Numbered from the stretch's first letter, positions 2,186-12,970 are shown. The stretch: 64,000 nt of DNA from Lachnospiraceae bacterium (GCA_050944475.1 JBMNRD010000004.1:113963-177962); one strand, 5' to 3'. Notes: generated by a model not told the origin, from the letters alone. Made by a program: numbers and translations.

Positions 2186-3319
2186 TCACCTCGCCCATTC
2201 ACTGTCGGCGCTTACTACTACGATTCTGCCGTCCGGATCTTTTATTACAGAGCCGTCTTTGACAGATACGCCTTCGTTAACAATCGCTTTTGTAATTTTG
2301 CAGTTTTTGCCGATCTGCGCGCCCGGCAGAAGCACGGAATCTGTGATTCCGGATCCCTCTCCGATAGTTACGGACGTAGCCAGACTGGATCGGGTCACAC
2401 TTCCGTCAACTACGCAACCGTTACAGACCAGAGACGTTTTGACCTTTCCCTTTTTCCCGATATAGTGGGCAGGGTAGAGGTTGGAATTGGAATAAATCTG
2501 ACTGCCTTCCCGGAATATCAGACATCCGATATCCCTGGTAATCATTTCCATTTGCGCTTCATAGTAGCTTTCTATTGTTCCGATATCTTTCCAGCAGCCC
2601 TCAAAAGAATATGAAAACAGGCGCTTTTTTTCTTCCAGCAATTTAGGAATAATGTTTTTTCCGAAATCGTGTTCGGAATCTTCTGCTTCATGGTCTTCCA
2701 ACAACGCTTTGCGAAGAATTGGCCACTTGAAAATATAAATTCCCATCGAGGCCAGAGTGCTGTCCGGTTTTTTCGGTTTTTCCGCAAATTTATAGATGCG
2801 GCCCTCCTCATCTGCGGACATGATGCCGAAGCGGCTTGCTTCTTTAAGAGAAACATTATATACGGAAATCGTAAGATCCGCGTCATGCTCGATATGCTCT
2901 TCCAGCATATCCGCGTAGTTCATTTTGTAAATATGATCTCCGGAAAGAATCAGCACATGTTCCGGGTCATAAATATCCACAAAGTCTATATTGTTGTAAA
3001 TAGCATCGGCAGTTCCCGCATACCAGCTGCCGCCGGTTTCTGTCGCGTACGGCGGGAGGATATGAACACCTCCGTGCGTGGAATCGAGATCCCAAGGCTC
3101 GCCGGTTCCGATATAGTGATTGAGCACAAGCGGTTTGTACTGTGTTAAAACACCGACGGTATCGATTGCCGAATTGACACAATTAGAAAGACTGAAATCG
3201 ATAATCCGGTACTTTCCTGCGAAAGAAACCGCCGGTTTGGCAATGTTTTTTGTCAACGCGCCGAGACGTCTGCCCTGGCCGCCTGCAAGAAGCATGGCAA
3301 TACATTTCTTTCCAGACAT
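2186..3319 (-). CDS. glgC: glucose-1-phosphate adenylyltransferase
   Basis: ORF 2186..3328. It contains [13 protein letters not shown] and [14 protein letters not shown] motifs. ATG at 3319 follows GGGAGGTG. Confidence 0.9.
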
Positions 3320-3344: not shown

Positions 3345-5789
3345 TTATCGATGCTCCACATGCCAGATCTCATCCGCATATTCACGAACCGTACGGTCAC
3401 TCGAGAAAAAAGCGGATTTAGCAATGTTAGTCAGAGACATGGCACCCCATCTGCCCTCATCTCTATAAATTCGATCCAGATTTTCAAACGCTTTGATATA
3501 AGCGTCAAAATCTTTCAATACAAAGTACTCATCTCCCCGGGTCAGAAGATTATCATAGATTCCCCAGAATCCTATGGATTGTATATGTTCGTCCTTCAAG
3601 GTTCCGTCAACCAGCTGTGAAGTGATCCGTTTCAGTCTGAGATCCGCTTCAGCGGTTTCTTTGGCGTTATAGCCGCCATACATTGTAAAGCGGGATGTTT
3701 CTTCGGAAGTGAGTCCGAAAATTTCCATGTTTTCCTTCCCGACCTGCATAAGGATTTCCGCGTTGGCACCGTCCAGTGTGCCCAGCGTAACGGCGCCGTT
3801 CATCATGAATTTCATGTTCCCGGTTCCACTGGCTTCTTTTCCGGCGGTAGAAATCTGCTCGGAAATATCAGCGGCCGGATAAATCAGCTGGCCATTGGAG
3901 ACGCAGAAGTTTTCCACAAACACCACCTTGATTTTTTTGCTGACAACGGGATCGTTATTGACCAGGTTTGCCACTACATTGATCAGATGAACGACTTCTT
4001 TCGCAAAAGCATATCCCTGGGCGGCCTTTCCTGCAAAGAAAAATGTATAGGGAAGGATATCAAGGTCCGGATTTTGTTTAATGCGATTATAAAGATCCAT
4101 GATCTTAAATATATTTAAAAGCTGCCGTTTATATGCGTGGATTCGTTTAACCTGAATATCAAAAACGGAATCCGGATTTACGGATATTCCGGCGGTCTTT
4201 TTCATGTATTCAGCAAGTTTTTGTTTATTTTCTTTTTTAACCTGCCGGAGACGGGCTGTGACAGAAAAGTCGTCTTTATAATCCAGAAGCTTTTCTATCT
4301 GATTGAAATCACGGAGCCATTCGTCCCCGATTACATCGGTGATGAGTCTTGCAAGAGCCGGGTTAGACTGAATCATAAATCTTCTGTGGCTGACCCCGTT
4401 GGTCTTGTTATTGAAACGATTCGGATAGATTGCCTGAAAATCATAGAACACGTCATTCTTTAAAATTTCGCTATGCAGGGCGGCAACACCGTTTACGGAA
4501 TGGCTGCCTATGATCGACAGATTTGCCATACGGACCATATTATCCCATAAAATGGATGTTCTGCGTAATGTCTCATAATCCGCGCAGCCGCGCTTTTCCA
4601 TTTTTTCCCGGAAACGACGGTCAATCTCCTCGATAATCATATAGACACGAGGCAGCAGTTCCTTGAACATACCGATTGGCCAGCTTTCCATCGCTTCCGG
4701 CAGGATAGTGTGATTTGTAAAGGAAACGGTTTGCAGGGTAATTGTCCACGCGTCATCCCAGTCCAGATTTTCCTGATCAAGCAGCACCCGTATCAGCTCC
4801 GGAATACAAAGTGTCGGGTGGGTATCATTAATATGAATGCTGATCCGTTCAGGAAAACTAAGCCACTGGTCGGTTCCGTAGAGAGCCTTATAATTTCTGA
4901 CAATATTTTCAATGCCTGCCGCAACCATCAGATATTCCTGCCGGAGTCTGAGCTTTCGTCCCATGCCGTTGCTGTCATCCGGATAAAGGATGCTGGTCAT
5001 GGCATCAATATCACAGCGTTCTTTCATTGCCGCCGCATAATCTCCGCGGTTGAAAGCATCCATATCAATGGTCTCGCGCATCGGCTGCGCGTCAAAGAGA
5101 TGAAGCACACCGACATTTTCCCCGCCTTCTCCGACTATCGGCACGTCGTACGGAACAGCGTAGACACATTGGTAACCTTTATGCGCGAAATGGGTGACTC
5201 CGTCTATATAGGTTCTCTCCACATGGCCGCCGAACCGCACGATGACAGTATCTTCCGGATGCTTGACTTCCCATGGATAATCATTTTGCAACCATGTGTC
5301 CGGGAGCTCGATTTGTTTGCCGTTTTTAATCATTTGCCGGAACAGACCGAATTTATAGCGGAGGCCTATACCGGCGCCATCGATTCCGATAGCGGCCATC
5401 GAATCTAAAAAGCAGGCGGCAAGGCGGCCGAGACCGCCGTTTCCGAGACCCGGATCCGGTTCGAATTCAAATAACTCCTCCAGATTGTCCCCCATCTCTT
5501 CCAGTGCCTCTGCGACAACATCCCGCACGCCAAGGTTATAGAGGTAATTTTCCAAGAGTCTTCCAATAAGAAACTCCATGGAAAAATAAAAGACTTTCTT
5601 CTGGCCGGTCTCAATGGAGGTGTTTACATTTTCAGAGCGAATGCTTCCGGCCTCGGTAGCTATCATCTCTGCAAGCGCCATATATTTTTCGTAACCGGTA
5701 CAGTTTTTATATGGTTTTGCGTAAATGCTTCTGAGCGTTTGCTCGAAATGATGTTTAAAGTTTTCTTTGTTGCTGAACATACATGTCAT
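3345..5789 (-). CDS. glgP: glycogen/maltodextrin phosphorylase (GT35)
   Basis: 814 aa. It has the PLP-lysine motif EASGTGNMKFMMNGA. ATGA overlap with the glgB stop. Confidence 0.9.
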   Translation of the reverse strand: MTCMFSNKENFKHHFEQTLRSIYAKPYKNCTGYEKYMALAEMIATEAGSIRSENVNTSIETGQKKVFYFSMEFLIGRLLENYLYNLGVRDVVAEALEEMGDNLEELFEFEPDPGLGNGGLGRLAACFLDSMAAIGIDGAGIGLRYKFGLFRQMIKNGKQIELPDTWLQNDYPWEVKHPEDTVIVRFGGHVERTYIDGVTHFAHKGYQCVYAVPYDVPIVGEGGENVGVLHLFDAQPMRETIDMDAFNRGDYAAAMKERCDIDAMTSILYPDDSNGMGRKLRLRQEYLMVAAGIENIVRNYKALYGTDQWLSFPERISIHINDTHPTLCIPELIRVLLDQENLDWDDAWTITLQTVSFTNHTILPEAMESWPIGMFKELLPRVYMIIEEIDRRFREKMEKRGCADYETLRRTSILWDNMVRMANLSIIGSHSVNGVAALHSEILKNDVFYDFQAIYPNRFNNKTNGVSHRRFMIQSNPALARLITDVIGDEWLRDFNQIEKLLDYKDDFSVTARLRQVKKENKQKLAEYMKKTAGISVNPDSVFDIQVKRIHAYKRQLLNIFKIMDLYNRIKQNPDLDILPYTFFFAGKAAQGYAFAKEVVHLINVVANLVNNDPVVSKKIKVVFVENFCVSNGQLIYPAADISEQISTAGKEASGTGNMKFMMNGAVTLGTLDGANAEILMQVGKENMEIFGLTSEETSRFTMYGGYNAKETAEADLRLKRITSQLVDGTLKDEHIQSIGFWGIYDNLLTRGDEYFVLKDFDAYIKAFENLDRIYRDEGRWGAMSLTNIAKSAFFSSDRTVREYADEIWHVEHR

Positions 5790-7726
5790 CCTTTTCTATT
5801 TGTTCTTTTCCATACAGCGCCTCCCACCGGAGGGATTGTAATTTCGATGGAATACGGCTGTCCGTGCATCGGAATTTTCTGTGCCGTAACCGGCTTGTTT
5901 AAGATCTGACCGCTTCCGCCGTAGGACGGGGCATCAGAATTAAATATTTCTTTATAAATTCCCGGTTTCGGGACTCCGATCCGAAATCCTTTGTAGGTCT
6001 GCACTCCGAAATTCAAAGCGCAGATCAGGCGGCTTCTGCCTCCGGCGCTGGTTCTTATATAACTTAAAATGTTCTGCTTGCTGTTATCCGCATCCAGCCA
6101 TGTAAAACCGAACCAGTCATGATCGTTGCTCCAGAGGGCAATTTCCGACTTATAAAAATAATTCAGCGCTTTGACATAATCTTTATGCTTGGCATGCGCT
6201 TCATAGTCCAGAAGGAACCACTCCAGCTCTTCATATTCGCGCCATTCGATAAAGACCGCGAGTTCGCTTCCCATGAAATTCAGCTTCTTGCCCGGATGCG
6301 TCATCTGGTATAAGAGCAGCAGACGAAGATTCGCAAACTGCCTCCAGTAATCGCCCGGCATCCGGCCGATCAAAGATTTTTTCCCATGAACCACCTCATC
6401 ATGTGATAAGGGTAAAACAAAATTTTCATTAAACGCGTACATCATGGAAAAAGTCAGACGTTCGTGGAATTCGCTGCGGGACGGAAAATCTGTCTGCATG
6501 AAGCTGAGCGTATCATTCATCCAGCCCATGTTCCATTTATAGTGAAAGCCCAGCCCTCCGACATCCGGCGGATAAGTGACCAGCGGCCACGCCGTACTTT
6601 CCTCCGCGAAAGTATAGACCTCCGGAAAATACCGGCCGATCATGCGGGAGAGTTCCTGCAAAAATACGATCGCGTTCAGATCCGAATCGGAGCCGTCCTT
6701 ATTGAACCGTTTTTTCTTTTCATCATCAATACCGAAGTTCATATATAAAATGCTGCTGACGCCGTCGACACGGATTCCGTCAGCATGGAACTGTTCCAGC
6801 CAGAACATGGCGGAGGAAAGGAGAAAACTGCGCACCTCGCCTCTTCCGTAGTCAAACTTGAACGTGCCCCAGTTCGGATGTTCCCGTTCTTCATAAAGCT
6901 TCCGTCCGTTAAAGGAGCAAAGACCATGGGCGTCTCTGCAGAAATGCCCCGGTACCCAGTCTAAGATTACGCCCAAACCGGATTGGTGACAGCGGTCGAT
7001 AAAATACATCAAATCCTGCGGTGTGCCATACCGGGAGGTAGCGGAAAAGAAGCCGGTCGTCTGATATCCCCAAGAGGCATCAAAGGGGTGCTCCATGACC
7101 GGGAGGATCTCAAGATGGGTGTATCCCATGTTCTTAACATAAGGGATCAGGATATCTGCCAGCTCTCTGTAAGAATAAAATTCCGGGCATGCCGTATTGT
7201 CCGTATCATCTCTTACCGCCGGGGGCCTCTTCCAGGAGCCTAAATGCACCTCATAGATATTTCCGGGTTCTTTGAAATGATCTTTCTGCTTTCTCTTTTC
7301 CATCCACAGCTGATCCTGCCACCGGTATTCTATATCCCAGATAACGGATGCCGTATCCGGACGTTTCTGGGAATAAATCGCATACGGATCTGCTTTGTAG
7401 AGTAGCTTTCCTCCGGATGTTTCAATCAGATATTTATAGCACATGCCTTTTTCAGGACCTTTCAGAACACCGGTCCATACGCCGCCGGTTCCGAGCGGTT
7501 TCAGATAATCACCGCCATCCGAGCAGCTGCCCTTTCGGCTTTTCCAGTCATTCCAGTCTCCGATAACAGACACGCTTTTCACAGAGGGAGCCCAGACGGT
7601 AAAGCGCACGCCCGCTTGCTCAATGTGAGAGCCGAAAATATGATAAGCGTGGTAATATTTTCCCTCGCCGAAAATATAGAGCAAATCTTCTGTTGGAACG
7701 GAAGATATCGTTTTCAATCCCGGCAA
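5786..7726 (-). CDS. glgB: 1,4-alpha-glucan branching enzyme (GH13)
   Basis: 646 aa with GH13 motifs (GVILDWVPGHF, GIRVDGVSS, AEESTAWP). The start is a TTG and is uncertain (7726 or 7717). GAGGAGGGA lies upstream. Confidence 0.9.
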   Translation of the reverse strand: MPGLKTISSVPTEDLLYIFGEGKYYHAYHIFGSHIEQAGVRFTVWAPSVKSVSVIGDWNDWKSRKGSCSDGGDYLKPLGTGGVWTGVLKGPEKGMCYKYLIETSGGKLLYKADPYAIYSQKRPDTASVIWDIEYRWQDQLWMEKRKQKDHFKEPGNIYEVHLGSWKRPPAVRDDTDNTACPEFYSYRELADILIPYVKNMGYTHLEILPVMEHPFDASWGYQTTGFFSATSRYGTPQDLMYFIDRCHQSGLGVILDWVPGHFCRDAHGLCSFNGRKLYEEREHPNWGTFKFDYGRGEVRSFLLSSAMFWLEQFHADGIRVDGVSSILYMNFGIDDEKKKRFNKDGSDSDLNAIVFLQELSRMIGRYFPEVYTFAEESTAWPLVTYPPDVGGLGFHYKWNMGWMNDTLSFMQTDFPSRSEFHERLTFSMMYAFNENFVLPLSHDEVVHGKKSLIGRMPGDYWRQFANLRLLLLYQMTHPGKKLNFMGSELAVFIEWREYEELEWFLLDYEAHAKHKDYVKALNYFYKSEIALWSNDHDWFGFTWLDADNSKQNILSYIRTSAGGRSRLICALNFGVQTYKGFRIGVPKPGIYKEIFNSDAPSYGGSGQILNKPVTAQKIPMHGQPYSIEITIPPVGGAVWKRTNRKG

Positions 7727-7751
7727 TCCCTCCTCTTTTTAATGTAATTAT

Positions 7752-7760
7752 ATTATATCA
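7752..7760 (-). promoter_or_regulatory. extended -10 element (TGaTATAAT) upstream of glgB
   Basis: The minus strand reads TGATATAAT about 25-35 nt upstream of the glgB start and its SD. The -35 is weak. Confidence 0.45.
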
Positions 7761-7837
7761 CAGAGGGTTGCTATCTGGAATGCTCATTATAGAGAAAAAG
7801 CACGCCGTTATGTGAAATTTAGTTCAAAAATTTTTTG

Positions 7838-7870
7838 ATAAAAAACCGACCTGCTTTAAGCAGGTCGGTT
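7838..7870 (-). terminator. rho-independent terminator (usable on both strands, better on minus)
   Basis: 9-bp GC-rich stem CCGACCTGC / GCAGGTCGG with a 5-nt loop. On the minus strand a U-run (TTTTTTATC) follows it. Confidence 0.7.
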
Positions 7871-8316
7871 CTTGGTGTGGTCTTTACTCTTTTTGCCGCC
7901 CGAGGAGAATCGGCGGGACTTGTTGCGATTTTTGGAACAGCTTGTAAGGCATTTGTGAGTATTTCCACTCTTCCCCCAATTTCTTTTTTCTCGTATTTGG
8001 GGTTGCTTTTCCTATAAAAACAGGGCTTTTTTATGTTTTTATTATTTATCATATCTCGCATTGCAAAAAGTGTTGCAAAATGGACTAAAAATAATAACGA
8101 GTGGCTATAGGATTATACCAACAATCAATCACAATTTGCTACTCTTTCCTTATCAGACGATAAAATAACTATCATTTATAATTATTTACCAATATTAGCA
8201 GCAAGCCTTGAAATCTAAAAAACAATGCACACAAGACATTTTAATTTTGATTATAATCACCTCATTCTTACATGTATTATAAAAAATCATTCTTGTATGT
8301 TTCATTTTTTGATAAG

Positions 8317-9783
8317 TTATTTCGGATATTTAATATTTTCATCTTTCCAAGTTTTTAGAACAAAATTGTAGCAGTTACCGTTTGAATCCATCATTTTATT
8401 TACAATTGGCACCATTTTTTTTACCGAATCAGAGTGGGAAGATGCCAATAATATTCCTGCTTTCGGATTATGGCCATCCATGACAAGACCATCCCAATAC
8501 ATTCTCAATTGATATAGATCTCGTAAGGTCGTAATGTCACGCTTCCCTTCATAAAGCGTTATTTCACCATTCAAACTAATAAAAAGATCTATACGCATCT
8601 TCTCTTCAACAGAAATAAACGCAAATTGTTCAGTAGTAACCGTTTTGGGCTCAGGCAAATGAGTTTCTTTAGCCTTTTTAAGCTCGTCAATTAAATCAAG
8701 TTCATTATCTGTATCGGCAAGATGCTTTGGAGGCTCGGGCATGTGACTTCTTATCCATTCATATAGTTTGTCGAGCTTTTCATCACCTTCACGAAGCCCG
8801 TTTTTTGATGTACGGGTTGGAGGTAAATATTCTTTCTTGTCAGATACTAAATTTATCTGTACTAACAAATGATTATACGAATTGTGTTTCTCAGTTGCCC
8901 AAATTTCTTTGAACAGATTGTAAGCAAGTACTCTACCATTAATGCGTAACTCTACGCCTGAAGAGGACATATTCCTTTTGTAATATTTTTTGCTATCAGT
9001 TTTCTCCTTAATGCCACCAAAAGAATATTCTATTTTTACAACGCCTTTACCAAGATCCTTTTCAGCAGTACCGTTTCCTGGCTGATAAAATTGCTCCCAA
9101 TCAGGTTCAATTGCCTTTACTTGTGTTGTAACATTGCCCCCTTGATTATCATTTTTTTCAACCACAATAGTTGCATCTCCATCTTTTATGTTTCCAGCAT
9201 AAATAAATCCCAAATCTTCAACTAACAAATCGAGAATAGTATTAAAGTTTGCATAGCTACCTCGCATTCCTCTATGAATTGTCTTAAACATTTCTCTAGA
9301 ACAAGTAAACTCAACAATTGTTCCAGTTCTAAACGGCCCTTTCCAACCTTTCTCAACGGCTGCTTTTAAACTTCCCATTTGATATGGTGCAGTTATTACT
9401 ACATGTTCATCTTTTTTGGCATTTTCATCAGTTCTAGTTAATATTTTCCAATTATCGTTAAGGGGATTAGCACTCGCTAAGGCATGCTTAAACCCAAAAC
9501 CGTGTTTGTTAAGAGGTGTTTCTGAAGCATCTTGATTGCCTAAAGTAAATGCTTTATCAAGCTTTTTGATGCCAGTACCAGTGTCCTTAATTACAACTCT
9601 TATTTCAGGTTCTTCATAAAATTCTATTATTATGTTTTTAATTGAAGAATTATTCGCCTTTAAATTCGAAATGCTATTGTCTACAAATTCACATATTATT
9701 TGAACTAGCGAATCAAAGTGCCCTCCAATGCCTTGCCAAAGATCATTTGCAGATGGGGTGTTTTTAATAATAAAATTGCTCAT
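8317..9783 (-). CDS. MORC-like GHKL ATPase fused to a putative PD-(D/E)xK nuclease domain
   Basis: 488 aa. Bergerat-fold motifs are present: N box E32-FVD-N36, G1 D67-T-G-T-G71, G2 HGFGFKH (94-100), then GTIVEF (154-159). An S5-like segment GVELRINGRVL follows. The C-terminus has RID399LF...LYE412GK414, followed by QLRMYW. SD-like GGTGA lies 4 nt upstream of the ATG. Confidence 0.65.
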   Translation of the reverse strand: MSNFIIKNTPSANDLWQGIGGHFDSLVQIICEFVDNSISNLKANNSSIKNIIIEFYEEPEIRVVIKDTGTGIKKLDKAFTLGNQDASETPLNKHGFGFKHALASANPLNDNWKILTRTDENAKKDEHVVITAPYQMGSLKAAVEKGWKGPFRTGTIVEFTCSREMFKTIHRGMRGSYANFNTILDLLVEDLGFIYAGNIKDGDATIVVEKNDNQGGNVTTQVKAIEPDWEQFYQPGNGTAEKDLGKGVVKIEYSFGGIKEKTDSKKYYKRNMSSSGVELRINGRVLAYNLFKEIWATEKHNSYNHLLVQINLVSDKKEYLPPTRTSKNGLREGDEKLDKLYEWIRSHMPEPPKHLADTDNELDLIDELKKAKETHLPEPKTVTTEQFAFISVEEKMRIDLFISLNGEITLYEGKRDITTLRDLYQLRMYWDGLVMDGHNPKAGILLASSHSDSVKKMVPIVNKMMDSNGNCYNFVLKTWKDENIKYPK

Positions 9784-9823
9784 AATTCACCATTGCCTTT
9801 CTTGTTTTATGTGACATATATTT

Positions 9824-9851
9824 AAAATATTAATAATCAAAATGTTGACAA
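9824..9851 (-). promoter_or_regulatory. possible sigma-A promoter for the GHKL gene (TTGTCA-N16-TATTTT)
   Basis: Read on the minus strand, about 40 nt upstream of the ATG at 9783. In AT-rich DNA this could be a chance match. Confidence 0.3.
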
Positions 9852-10470
9852 TTCGTTCCTTAAACGAACAACTACTTCTCTAAAAAAAGCAACATCCAAA
9901 ATAAAAATATTTTTCTCTAACATATAAAATCCTGAAGCAATTTTATCATTTTTTAAAAAATAAATCAGCACCTCAACGATTTTTTCAAATGGTGAATATG
10001 TAGAAAACAATTTGTGCAACTCCACGATTTTATCCCTTAATATAAAAACATATTCAATAGGGGAAGATTGCGCGACTCTCCTCGATTTATGGGGTCATAT
10101 CCTTTTTCTAATACTGTCTTATTCCCACTCTCCATTGGTAAAAATTCAAAGGGTGAAAAGATTGGTATTTTAATCTTTTTAACAGCTCATATCCGTTTTG
10201 TTCGCCTTGTTTCAACTCATTTATATATTGTTTTACCCGTTCCAGTCCCAGTTCCGGTTTATAAATTAACTTATTTTTTCCCCTCTTTTCAGTTTCTTTG
10301 TGACTTCATAAAACTGTATTTGTTTTCAATCTGTTACATAATTTAATATGAAATACTCACCCAATACCCCTAAGAGCTTTCCTTTATCCATTTTAGATGT
10401 ATGTGTATAAAATAGCATTCCTATCTCATTATATTTATCGTTTCTCGCAGGCTGTTTTCCATCATTATTA

Positions 10471-10784
10471 TTACACTAAAAATTTTAGATTTAGAGATAA
10501 CAATATCAGAGCAGCATAAGCAATTTTTAACCTCTCTATTGTATTTTCTATATAAGTTACCATCTCATCCGTTGAGGTAACAGGATATTTAGCATTAATC
10601 TTTACCTTTTGATTAAGTAAATTCCGAACGTCTTAACAATACTGAATTCTTGTCCTTAAAAAAAAGTGCTTTTCTCATTTCTAAAAAAATATGATATCGA
10701 TTTTTCTTAAGGTAAATTAAAAATGGAACGTATTACCATCTCCAATTCTTTATAAGCTTGAATATATTTATCAGCATTGCCCAT
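10471..10784 (-). pseudogene. decayed small ORF, possibly a second HEPN-like gene
   Basis: AAGGAG-N9-ATG follows the TGA of the upstream gene directly. The ORF reads MGNADKYIQAYKELEMVIRSIFNLP*, then EKSISYFFRNEKSTFF*. After a frame change it reads DVRNLLNQKVKINAKYPVTSTDEMVTYIENTIERLK. That is two in-frame stops plus a frameshift, and the RNxxxH-like motif carries Q in place of H. Confidence 0.35.
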
Positions 10785-10799
10785 TCTTTATCACTCCTT

Positions 10800-11711
10800 T
10801 CAAAAAAACTCTTCTTTCTTAGAAAGTATAATTTTTTTCCACTCTGCTAATATTTCCAAACTAATAATTCCACGTGCAGATACCTTGCCTTGATAAACAT
10901 CTTGAAATATAAAATAATTTTGAAATCCATCTTCAATTATTAAAAATGAACCATGTGCAATAGAATTACGTAAATGCCTAAACAAACTTAAATATTGATT
11001 TTTTAGAGAGTCAACCATAACGACCCTCCCTTCTCTATTCAAATTATCTAACATATGTTCATTTAATTTAAATAACTGAAATTCCTCTACCCTTTCCTTA
11101 AGATCATCATTATTTCCTGCAATTCCTCCAGTATTGTCATTTATCCCCTTCACTTTAAACTCTGATAACTTAGCTCTTAATTGTTCTCTATCTCCTCTCT
11201 TAAAACAATCTTTACCCCAAAGAGCATAAACATCTGTAAATTGTTTTGTTGGTGTGCTTTCTTCCTTTGCAGGAGAATTTAATAAATAAAACCTTAAAAT
11301 GTTATTATATTTATCTATTAAATTCTTCTTATTTAGCTTCCAGATAGAATCATCCCAAGTTTTAGCTTTAACATCTCCACTACAATATCTTGAACTTGAC
11401 CTGGTCTCAACATCTATTTCATTATTTTTCTTTTGATATACACGTAAATAATAAGTTCGTTGCAAAGCATAACCTTTTTCTTTATGACCTTTTTTTATCA
11501 AATAAACTCTAAAAAATTTAGGAAGTTTTTCATTGAGTGTTAAATCAAATCTAAAACCATCTGTTACCATAAACTCATCTTGCACTATCTTCCAGTCCTT
11601 TTCACAAAGAACACTTCTTTCAATTTGATATTTATTAAAATCCAAACTTTTATTTTTATCAATTTCTACATATTTCTTATCTTTGGAAATTTTAAATTTT
11701 ATACGAGTCAT
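10800..11711 (-). CDS. HEPN-motif protein with an unrecognised N-terminal domain (putative RNase effector)
   Basis: 303 aa. The C-terminal helix region LFRHLR248NSIAH253GSF fits the R-x4-H HEPN signature (DNA CGTAATTCTATTGCACAT at 10970-10953). The first ~200 aa are beta-rich and lysine-rich with no motif I recognise. SD GGGAG lies 6 nt upstream of the ATG. Confidence 0.55.
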   Translation of the reverse strand: MTRIKFKISKDKKYVEIDKNKSLDFNKYQIERSVLCEKDWKIVQDEFMVTDGFRFDLTLNEKLPKFFRVYLIKKGHKEKGYALQRTYYLRVYQKKNNEIDVETRSSSRYCSGDVKAKTWDDSIWKLNKKNLIDKYNNILRFYLLNSPAKEESTPTKQFTDVYALWGKDCFKRGDREQLRAKLSEFKVKGINDNTGGIAGNNDDLKERVEEFQLFKLNEHMLDNLNREGRVVMVDSLKNQYLSLFRHLRNSIAHGSFLIIEDGFQNYFIFQDVYQGKVSARGIISLEILAEWKKIILSKKEEFF

Positions 11712-11761
11712 AATATCTCCCTAAATACTCATATTTATATTTATGTTTATATTCTCTACTG

Positions 11762-11813
11762 GGAAACGCACTTTCGAAAGTCCACCGCCTGGACTTCTGA
11801 GGATGCGGTTTCC
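11762..11813 (-). promoter_or_regulatory. extended imperfect hairpin in the leader of the HEPN gene
   Basis: Basal stem GGAAAC(C)GCA (11813-11804) pairs with UGCGUUUCC (11770-11762). Apical stem GAAGUCCA-GGCGG-UGGACUUU spans 11797-11777. No U-tract follows, so it is not a classical terminator. Confidence 0.4.
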
Positions 11814-11941
11814 ACTACATAAACTCTTATCATAAAACTCTACTCAGCCGTGAAATTCTGACTCTAGCTTGTACTTACTTGTCTCTCTCAACCTCTATGA
11901 AACAGCACCTCAGTTTTCTAATCGACACGAGTTTCTGGCAG

Positions 11942-11996
11942 AAAGAGTACCTACGCCTCGAATAGCGCCCTTCGGGCTTACTTGCGTTCGGCACTC
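11942..11996 (-). terminator. possible guaA terminator (weak)
   Basis: GAGUGCC (11996-11990) pairs with GGUACUC (11951-11945). An inner ACGC/GCGU stem and a GCCC-GAA-GGGC hairpin lie inside. Only UUUCU follows. Confidence 0.3.
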
Positions 11997-12970
11997 TACT
12001 CCCACTCAATACTACTCGTCGGTTTATCTGATATATCCCACAGCACCCTGTTAATCCCCGGAACATTTTCGATAATGCGGTCTCTGATGGTGCAAAGCAT
12101 CTCCCATGGAAGCTCCATCGACCGGGCGGTTACGGCATCAACCGTATTAACCGCGCGGATGACGGCCGCCCATCCCATGTGGCGTTTGCCGTCTTTGACA
12201 CCGGTGGAAACCAGATCCGGAATGGCTACGTAATACTGCCACGGTGTCGGGTCCATTTTGTCGATTTCTTCTCTGGCGATGGCATCAGCCTCGCGGACTG
12301 CTTCCAGGCGCTCTCTGGTGATGGCGCCGGTGCATCTTACACCAAGGCCCGGGCCCGGAAAAGGCTGACGATAAACCATTTTATCGGGAAGTCCGAGAGC
12401 CTTTCCAACCACCCTGACTTCATCCTTGTAAAGGAATTTTATCGGTTCGCACAGTTCAAACTGCATATCCTCCGGCAGGCCGCCCACGTTGTGGTGTGCC
12501 TTAACTCCGTCGCTTTCTATGATGTCCGGATAAATGGTTCCCTGAGCAAGAAATTCGACTCCCTCCAATTTGCGCGCCTCTTCTTCAAATACTCTGATGA
12601 ATTCCGCGCCGATGATTTTTCTCTTCTGTTCCGGGTCCGCAACGCCCGCCAGCTTGTCTAAAAATCTGTCAACCGCATCCACATATACAAGATTGGCATC
12701 CAGCTCGTCTCTGAATACGCGCACGACCTCTTCCGGCTCTCCCTTGCGAAGCAGGCCGTTATTTACGTGAACGCAGGTAAGCTGTCTGCCGATTGCCTTT
12801 ATAAGCAGAGCGGCAACTACTGACGAGTCAACACCGCCGGACAGCGCAAGCAGAACTTTTTTATCGCCGACCTGAGCCCTTATCCCGGCTACCTTCTCCT
12901 CAATGAAAATCCGGGCATGCTCCGGGGTTGTGATACGGACCATTGTTTCCGGACGTACATTTTCTGACAT
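11996..12970 (-). CDS. guaA: GMP synthase ATP-pyrophosphatase plus dimerisation domains only (no GATase domain)
   Basis: 324 aa. It has the PP-loop LALSGGVDSSV and ends in the canonical GuaA C-terminus SSIEWE. ATG at 12970 follows AGGGGGA, and an in-frame TAG lies 5 codons upstream. Confidence 0.85.
   Translation of the reverse strand: MSENVRPETMVRITTPEHARIFIEEKVAGIRAQVGDKKVLLALSGGVDSSVVAALLIKAIGRQLTCVHVNNGLLRKGEPEEVVRVFRDELDANLVYVDAVDRFLDKLAGVADPEQKRKIIGAEFIRVFEEEARKLEGVEFLAQGTIYPDIIESDGVKAHHNVGGLPEDMQFELCEPIKFLYKDEVRVVGKALGLPDKMVYRQPFPGPGLGVRCTGAITRERLEAVREADAIAREEIDKMDPTPWQYYVAIPDLVSTGVKDGKRHMGWAAVIRAVNTVDAVTARSMELPWEMLCTIRDRIIENVPGINRVLWDISDKPTSSIEWE

Follow-up and report, generated by a model that had tools for sequence, protein, structure and literature searches.

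A guaA-adjacent islet in a Lachnospiraceae bacterium that probably holds two unrelated, independently mobile single-gene conflict systems

Directly downstream of guaA in a Lachnospiraceae bacterium (GCA_050944475.1, JBMNRD010000004.1:113963-177962; these 64,000 nucleotides, analysed whole, are called the window here) lies an AT-rich islet with two long open reading frames (ORFs). ORF-A encodes a GHKL ATPase joined to a nuclease domain, and ORF-B a protein with an R-N-x3-H motif. The islet is best explained as a small, horizontally acquired variable region at the guaA 3′ end, which probably carries two single-gene conflict systems, unrelated and each mobile on its own. The genes do not cooperate; they are neighbours by coincidence, through a shared insertion hotspot. 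A preliminary description of this DNA had instead taken them for a candidate two-gene defence module of a kind that it did not recognise. Would two such neighbours not be partners? When conflict-type genes sit side by side in an AT-rich islet, a cross-genome linkage test is needed before a system is called. Such a test is reported here, together with the computed domain architecture, motif conservation, solo occurrence, cross-phylum patchiness and plasmid carriage of these genes, as well as the defence-gene neighbourhoods of their relatives.

For the linkage test, six-frame translations of loci were searched with profiles of both families. The sample comprised 93 GHKL loci (1.31 Mb of flanking sequence in total, with 5 kb or more on each side at 53 of them) and 97 ORF-B-family loci (0.92 Mb of flanks). 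Within about 10 kb, both genes were found together at 0 of the 93 GHKL loci and 0 of the 97 ORF-B-family loci, and the pair is present on a single contig only, the one described here. Each gene does occur alone in the same slot. On one contig (L011), a GHKL gene 78% identical to ORF-A starts 30 nucleotides after guaA, with a hydantoinase gene behind it. On another (L001), an ORF-B homologue of 61% identity starts just 4 nucleotides after guaA, and pilin and sortase genes come next. The guaA proteins of these two contigs are 65–67% identical to that of the window. In Psychrobacter sp. ER1, guaA again immediately precedes the GHKL gene, and in all, homologues of ORF-A or ORF-B come straight after it in L001-3, L010-12 and L037. 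In L097 and L027 it lies at the edge of larger islands; such islands include one in Collinsella. From the absence of linkage at both sets of loci, and from the presence of each gene alone after guaA, it follows that ORF-A and ORF-B are independent cargo stacked at the guaA 3′ end. The two-gene module is thus unsupported, and the fallback of the preliminary description, two independent single-gene systems, is the one that fits both the linkage and the guaA-slot evidence. The three genes concerned are as follows.

8317..9783, minus strand: ORF-A, 488 amino acids, with a GHKL ATPase domain (residues ~20–160), an S5-type transducer or middle domain (~200–345) and a NucS/EndoMS-like PD-(D/E)xK nuclease domain (~355–480)
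10800..11711, minus strand: ORF-B, 303 amino acids, with an all-beta N-terminal domain (1–104) and an alpha/beta C-terminal domain (~120–300) that carries the motif
11996..12970, minus strand: guaA, 324 amino acids, the ATP-pyrophosphatase and dimerisation part of GMP synthase; its 3′ end is the insertion hotspot

Both ORFs are real, intact genes, and the islet is compositionally foreign, because the frames beat shuffled sequence, the homologues are full length and the guanine-plus-cytosine (GC) content is low. GC amounts to 31.7% across the islet (8000-11995), against 47.3% in the glgP-glgB flank and 51.0% in the guaA-uvrA flank. The longest stop-to-stop frames of the islet are those of ORF-A and ORF-B (489 and 306 codons), while in 500 dinucleotide-preserving shuffles the longest and second-longest frames reached at most 184 and 139 codons. 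Homologues cover 98–100% of either protein, so that both are full length. The earlier statement that the islet holds two intact, co-oriented ORFs is therefore sound. Their common orientation says nothing about an operon, however, since the entire neighbourhood (glgP, glgB, ORF-A, ORF-B, guaA and uvrA) lies on a single strand.

The guaA 3′ end is a recurrent insertion point across phyla, seen in Lachnospiraceae-like contigs, Psychrobacter sp. ER1, Collinsella and a metagenome contig. The cargo that follows it can be a GHKL gene, an ORF-B homologue or a larger island of restriction-modification and abortive infection (Abi) genes. Integrative elements, GIsul2 among them, insert at the guaA 3′ end as well. 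The guaA ORF of the window is itself about 100 amino acids shorter at its N-terminus than those of L001 and L011, and no glutamine-amidotransferase domain is encoded between it and uvrA; this guaA may be split or truncated. The window contains no tRNA gene, its islet no integrase, and the islet borders no convincing att-like direct repeats.

ORF-A carries a complete set of ATPase motifs. Pfam recovers its GHKL domain as HATPase_c_3 (E 2e-8) and HATPase_c (E 2.8e-6), while the PADLOC, NCBIfam and Pfam scans together yield nothing more specific. This family is large: the matches listed fall into more than 314 clusters. Its motifs are E32xxxN36, D67xGxG71, G95xG97, T155, E412xK414 and Q425xxxY429. 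Across 32 family members, residues E32, N36, D67, G69, G71, G95, G97, T155, K327 (the lysine of a T-S-K-N-G motif), E361 and K414 are invariant, as are G413, Y424, L426 and the Y429-W-D-G segment, and D399, E412 and Q425 are conserved in at least 90%. An AlphaFold2 model of the protein (mean predicted local distance difference test score, pLDDT, 89.7) was compared to the PDB with Foldseek. The top matches are GHKL-plus-transducer structures, aligned over ~370–430 columns with E values from 1e-13 to 1e-11: the SMCHD1 ATPase (6mw7), Hsp90, the 43K fragment of GyrB, MORC3 (5ix2) and MutL (1b63). The model thus confirms the GHKL and S5 module, in agreement with the Bergerat motifs and S5-like segment first noticed. 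It does not single out MORC. SMCHD1, Hsp90, GyrB, MORC3 and MutL match about equally, and so the proposed name “MORC-like” is not specific and, as far as the model can tell, is no better supported than “MutL-like” or “GyrB-like”; MORC in the strict sense, represented by MORC3, is one of several GHL families matched to the same degree. Two further searches were less informative: against viral structures, Foldseek returned generic GHKL proteins only (rIIA, topoisomerases), and a PDB sequence-profile search with the full-length family gave nothing useful.

In the model, the last 130 residues of ORF-A fold into an alpha-beta-beta-beta-alpha-beta unit that contains D399, E412xK414 and Q425xxxY429, and the E-D-ExK signature of this domain (E361, D399, E412, K414) is conserved. 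A profile built from 25 diverse C-terminal domains of the family matches the Pyrococcus NucS structure 2vld (E 2.9e-5), where the catalytic D, ExK and Q line up, and gives a weaker match to EndoMS (5gke). The Pfam matches of these 25 domains are sub-threshold and divide between NucS_C (7/25) and Cas4 (4/25), 11 domains in all. The C-terminal D...ExK nuclease of the preliminary description is thereby confirmed as a PD-(D/E)xK enzyme and can be refined to NucS-like. NucS/EndoMS, the best profile match of the domain, differs in having its own N-terminal DNA-binding domain, a PCNA-binding tail and a role in repair, whereas ORF-A has a GHKL-S5 ATPase in their place and behaves as a mobile accessory gene.

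Has such a protein been seen before? The paraMORC3 family was described as a GHKL and S5 module followed by a C-terminal RecB-like domain of the restriction-endonuclease fold with an E-D-ExK signature (Iyer, Abhiman and Aravind 2008, PMC2292703). Its members are sporadic in bacteria and archaea, with stand-alone versions known, and they prevail in proteobacteria and Bacteroidetes, often linked to superfamily II (SF-II) helicases and methylases (PMC2292703). ORF-A shares the intact GHKL domain, the S5 segment, the C-terminal E-D-ExK nuclease and the sporadic spread, and it stands alone, with no linked restriction-modification genes. It differs in that its family is frequent in Bacillota as well, and in that neither helicases nor methylases recur beside its genes. 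ORF-A fits paraMORC3 by architecture, the comparison being to the published description.

A functional parallel comes from VcSduA of V. cholerae, an anti-phage GHKL-clamp-nuclease protein earlier annotated as paraMORC3 (Adams et al. 2025, PMC12137116). It protects E. coli from T1-like phages, and either E27A in the ATPase or K557A in the nuclease abolishes this protection, which is robust at every multiplicity of infection tested and is read by the authors as direct restriction (PMC12137116). Since its nuclease is a DUF4263 domain, they class it as a type I-D Shedu (PMC12137116). According to Gu et al. (bioRxiv 10.1101/2023.08.10.552793), EndoMS is the nearest structural relative of the Shedu nuclease, and some Shedu proteins have a GHKL domain at the N-terminus. 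Like VcSduA, ORF-A is a single gene whose one polypeptide joins a GHKL ATPase, a clamp-like middle domain and an EndoMS-related PD-(D/E)xK nuclease, and the catalytic residues E27 and K557 have their equivalents in E32 and K414. It differs from VcSduA by the DUF4263 nuclease of the latter, whose lysine is at position 557, compared with 414 in the 488 residues of ORF-A. DUF4263 (PF14082) was not matched by ORF-A or 10 distant relatives at E values up to 1, nor by the 25 isolated C-terminal domains at E values up to 10. Likewise, the PADLOC Shedu models matched neither ORF-A nor the relatives tested, and no Shedu chain appeared among the PDB sequence matches. By analogy, then, ORF-A would work like VcSduA and fits the paraMORC3 architecture, and it is not filed under Shedu because it matches neither DUF4263 nor the PADLOC Shedu models. 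By its architecture it is a new, divergent member of a kind already described and recently validated, which makes the earlier word “uncharacterised” too strong for it. What is left of novelty is that this branch is missed by the detection models tried (PADLOC 2.0.0, Pfam), and that the pEK499_p136-like domain of ORF-B, discussed below, has no structural match. If its function is borne out by experiment, ORF-A would extend the VcSduA/paraMORC3 class of single-gene immunity to a compact branch of about 490 residues that these models overlook.

The family is patchily distributed: a survey of 185,579 species genomes gave 124 matches, spread across phyla and both prokaryotic domains. Homologues of 45–55% identity occur in Bacillota, Bacteroidota, Pseudomonadota, Actinomycetota, Saccharibacteria, Spirochaetota, Halorubrum and Thaumarchaeota, including such groups as Lachnospiraceae, Flavobacteriia, Chlorobiota, Psychrobacter, Collinsella, Veillonella and Treponema. 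This scatter of sequences of similar identity over bacteria and archaea signals horizontal transfer. Clustering of up to eight nearest ORFs (four per side) at the GHKL loci revealed no conserved partner gene: the homologues are solo genes. Some are mobile or sit among conflict genes. Two mobilizable Lactiplantibacillus plasmids of 10.7 kb and 22.5 kb carry a copy beside a YafQ toxin-antitoxin pair or the Sau3AI restriction enzyme, a Priestia plasmid has one within a restriction island, and another lies between GmrSD/SLFN/Dcm-MutH genes and a type I CRISPR-cas locus. Others are found after tuf, or between prfC and an unknown gene. In IMG/VR, two copies of the family were detected among 2.9 million viral contigs.

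A more distant GHKL-nuclease subfamily, 35–37% identical to ORF-A, is found in Oscillospiraceae and Clostridia genomes (L052-L072). In 5–7 of its loci a large serine recombinase lies immediately upstream, and in 6 loci a conserved protein of ~300 residues is encoded next after the GHKL-nuclease gene. In that subfamily only, these arrangements suggest carriage by integrative elements or prophages and a possible partner.

How would ORF-A act? If GHL ATPases and VcSduA are a guide, the GHKL domain would bind and hydrolyse ATP, with E32 as general base and N36 as magnesium ligand, and thereby drive N-terminal dimerisation. The S5 transducer, in which K327 is likely to sense the gamma-phosphate, would then close the clamp on DNA. 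Clamp closure would position or release the NucS-like nuclease (E361, D399, E412, K414, Q425), so that invading DNA is cut, which is also the mechanism put forward for VcSduA. Immunity would, on the same analogy, be direct and not abortive.

The second protein, ORF-B, is, to judge from its relatives, built of a widespread C-terminal domain and a subfamily-specific N-terminal one. It has six close homologues of 48–61% identity, all solo genes. A profile search of 1.84 billion representatives finds 647 relatives, mostly ~190 amino acids long, and these cover residues ~120–297 only, which is the reason for the division. The conserved motif is S-L-F-x-H-L-R248-N249-x3-H253-G-x-F (R248-N249-S-I-A-H253 in ORF-B). 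R248, N249 and H253 are invariant in the alignment of close homologues (n=7), and among 41 wider relatives R248 remains invariant and H253 is conserved in at least 90%. ORF-B itself has no Pfam match in hmmscan, and the PADLOC and NCBIfam scans are also empty; the PADLOC check proposed earlier gave no defence-system match for either protein. A weak match to PF18736 is present in precomputed annotation of ORF-B and its homologues. This family, HEPN pEK499_p136, is the sole one in Pfam to be matched repeatedly, by 14 of the 41 relatives (best E 2e-5); HEPN_MAE_28990 is matched by two. In the AlphaFold2 model (mean pLDDT 82.6), residues 1–104 are all beta, and the motif lies at the end of a helix followed by a three-stranded sheet, within an alpha/beta C-terminal domain.

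ORF-B relatives are found in defence-gene neighbourhoods: between a PglX-type Eco57I methylase and PglZ, adjoining AbiJ, or beside a DUF4869-ATPase pair. A homologue of 48% identity lies in an island (L097) with the order hsdM-hsdS-DUF3644-ORF-B-AbiTii. Restriction-modification and Pgl/BREX loci are also the published setting of the pEK499_p136 HEPN family (Anantharaman et al. 2013, PMC3710099), and this agreement of contexts supports the link to a HEPN family. ORF-B resembles pEK499_p136 in these contexts and in the R-N-x3-H motif followed by a hydrophobic strand; the local pattern of pEK499_p136 is RNSVAH, then the strand. It differs by an additional N-terminal beta domain of ~110 residues, seen only in a small subfamily, and by falling below the Pfam thresholds. 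Judged by family and context, the HEPN label is plausible, and ORF-B is a putative member, or close relative, of a described but uncharacterised HEPN family. In the preliminary description the HEPN assignment was put more firmly; its conserved RNx3H motif stands, while the assignment as such rests on sub-threshold links to PF18736 and gains no support from the fold search. That description was right to see no MNT nucleotidyltransferase antitoxin, as none lies beside ORF-B in the window or is listed near its close homologues.

Some details of these loci deserve mention. The L097 island (5262-12160) is a compact defence island that starts ~3.7 kb downstream of guaA (623-1546), and its DUF3644 gene belongs to a HEPN family. 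Wider ORF-B-like members of ~190 residues recur between the PglX-type Eco57I methylase and PglZ of BREX (L099-L176); among the same loci, 22 have a divergently transcribed DUF4869 protein and a P-loop ATPase alongside, many of them near-duplicates from human gut assemblies. The reference protein pEK499_p136 (WP_000528932.1, “HEPN family nuclease”) is encoded at L192:41727-42227 on the E. coli plasmid pEK499, adjoining vapBC pairs, and occurs on 746 enterobacterial plasmids at 74% identity or more, mostly conjugative IncF types. It appears to have no solved structure, the PDB having been searched with a profile of distant ORF-B relatives and not with pEK499_p136 itself.

ORF-B would then be a stand-alone effector. 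Its N-terminal beta domain may sense a trigger or act as a regulator. The pEK499_p136-like C-terminal domain would cleave RNA through R248, N249 and H253, probably as a dimer, in the manner of HEPN effectors of the Abi type, and the outcome would resemble an Abi or toxin response. If experiments bear this out, ORF-B would provide a first way into the structure and activity of the pEK499_p136 “HEPN” family, a frequent one on clinical IncF plasmids.

Several other explanations must be weighed against that of two independent cargo genes. The first is the cooperating module itself, a GHKL ATPase-nuclease working with a HEPN RNase, possibly in an eroding operon. In its favour, both genes point the same way within one AT-rich islet, no terminator is predicted between the two, and there is a precedent: paraMORC ATPases fused to HEPN domains of the Ymh family (PF09509) have been described (Anantharaman et al. 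2013, PMC3710099), which likewise combine a GHKL ATPase and a HEPN domain in a conflict-system context. Those are single fused proteins with another HEPN family, however, whereas here there are two genes without conserved linkage, and ORF-B has no Pfam match to Ymh. Co-occurrence is nil at the 93 and 97 loci, either gene fills the guaA-downstream slot of related contigs on its own, 1016 gene-free nucleotides separate the two in the only contig that has both, and their shared orientation is uninformative, all of which makes cooperation very improbable. A role for ORF-A in DNA repair or recombination, as a MutL-like ATPase with a NucS/EndoMS-like endonuclease for mismatched or branched DNA, or else as a selfish addiction gene of mobile elements, deserves more credit and still seems quite unlikely. 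Its nearest detectable nuclease relatives are indeed mismatch endonucleases, its ATPase module resembles MutL and GyrB, many homologues reside among housekeeping genes, and stand-alone paraMORC3 proteins were proposed to act outside restriction-modification, including in repair (Iyer et al., PMC2292703). Against this stand the 124 matches in 185,579 species genomes at ~50% identity across phyla, the carriage on plasmids, the restriction, CRISPR or toxin-antitoxin genes near some copies, and the anti-phage activity of VcSduA, a validated protein of the same architecture. Patchy, partly plasmid-borne and, here, present in a foreign islet, the family looks more like accessory conflict genes than like repair genes.

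For ORF-B, the competing idea is that it is no HEPN protein at all: its H-x-R-N-x3-H-G motif would belong to an unsolved alpha/beta fold, for instance a different nuclease or a nucleotide-binding domain, with a role perhaps regulatory and not toxic. As modelled, the motif lies at a helix end with a three-stranded sheet after it, unlike an all-helical bundle; the protein stays under every Pfam threshold, and a PDB sequence search with the family profile gave no match at E values up to 10. Yet PF18736 is matched by about a third of the wider relatives (14/41) and a second HEPN family by 2/41, the pEK499_p136 protein has the same RNSVAH-then-strand pattern, the Rx4H spacing is a HEPN signature and the contexts are those published, and we consider a non-HEPN identity rather unlikely, if well worth keeping in sight. 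A little more room can be given to a bolder joint reading, in which the ORF-A family is a distinct and widespread branch of single-gene GHKL-clamp nucleases (bacterial and archaeal, chromosomal or on small plasmids, NucS-like and not DUF4263 in its nuclease, and missed by PADLOC 2.0.0 and the Pfam Shedu model), ORF-B couples a new beta-rich sensor to a “HEPN-like” alpha/beta fold not yet solved, and both are defence genes in a cross-phylum guaA-3′ hotspot. As a whole this is conceivable, and on balance we lean away from it.

The explanation by two independent conflict genes has its own difficulties, and the following observations weigh against it. The enzymatic activities, triggers and anti-phage functions of both families are all inferred. 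Many ORF-A homologues lie between housekeeping genes and not in obvious defence islands. PADLOC, applied to 142 neighbours of GHKL homologues, gave scattered restriction-modification and PDC-S01 matches with no common partner, in the form of per-family counts that yield no enrichment figure. With 0 Shedu or DUF4263 matches among ORF-A and 35 relatives (0/36), homology of the ORF-A nuclease to that of VcSduA is not supported. Neither is a HEPN fold for ORF-B: its model found no match in the PDB with Foldseek (best E 0.21), and HEPN structures were absent from the hits, a weak negative from one model and one search, albeit of a library with many HEPN structures. Direct profile comparison (hhalign) of the ORF-B family to pEK499_p136 aligns 20 columns only (E 0.016, probability 2.8%); the plasmid copies of the latter, all at least 74% identical, are too alike for a homologue profile. 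Finally, as no terminator is predicted between ORF-A and ORF-B, co-transcription in this genome is possible.

The rest of the islet is made of non-coding stretches, as follows.

9784..10799, no strand: spacer between ORF-A and ORF-B, 1016 nucleotides, 29% GC, no recognisable gene
11712..11995, no strand: guaA-ORF-B junction, 284 nucleotides from the guaA stop codon to the start of ORF-B
7841..7873, minus strand: GC-rich hairpin and T-run, a likely intrinsic terminator that ends the islet before the glgB promoter region

The spacer had been described as about 1 kb of decayed ORFs. It is indeed gene-free, with short ORFs only, none of which has a family match; the decay is not supported, as no gene remnant was found with Pfam, with tblastx against all loci or with tblastn against plasmids. 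The promoter-like element that had been attributed to ORF-A does exist (TTGTCA-16-TATTTT, 9851-9824), but such sites occur in the islet at chance frequency, 19 being found where shuffles lead one to expect 19.5 +/- 3.6. The junction contains no ORF, matches nothing in Rfam and resembles none of the other loci, and a GGGAG ribosome-binding site lies 7 nucleotides ahead of the ORF-B ATG. On the other side of the islet, the 590 nucleotides from ORF-A to glgB hold no convincing gene. They include the hairpin, a strong one, ~450 nucleotides downstream of ORF-A and ~115 upstream of the glgB start, whose arms are AACCGACCTGCTT and AAGCAGGTCGGTT, followed by the T-run; it was recognised as an inverted repeat (I5) and as the terminator-like portion of an Rfam STnc370 alignment.

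Within the spacer, a block of ~140 nucleotides (10118-10261, minus strand) is conserved in two unrelated loci. It opens with CCGGAACTGGGACTGGAACGGGTAAAA. No signal of a structured RNA (z = +1.5) or Rfam match was obtained for it, and no further copies occur in the window, plasmids or phages. The block is 81% identical to L097 9748-9892, just upstream of the ORF-B homologue of that island, and is partly kept in an IMG/VR contig (L179, ~3028-3170), between an SLFN/AlbA_2 gene and the istA gene of IS21.

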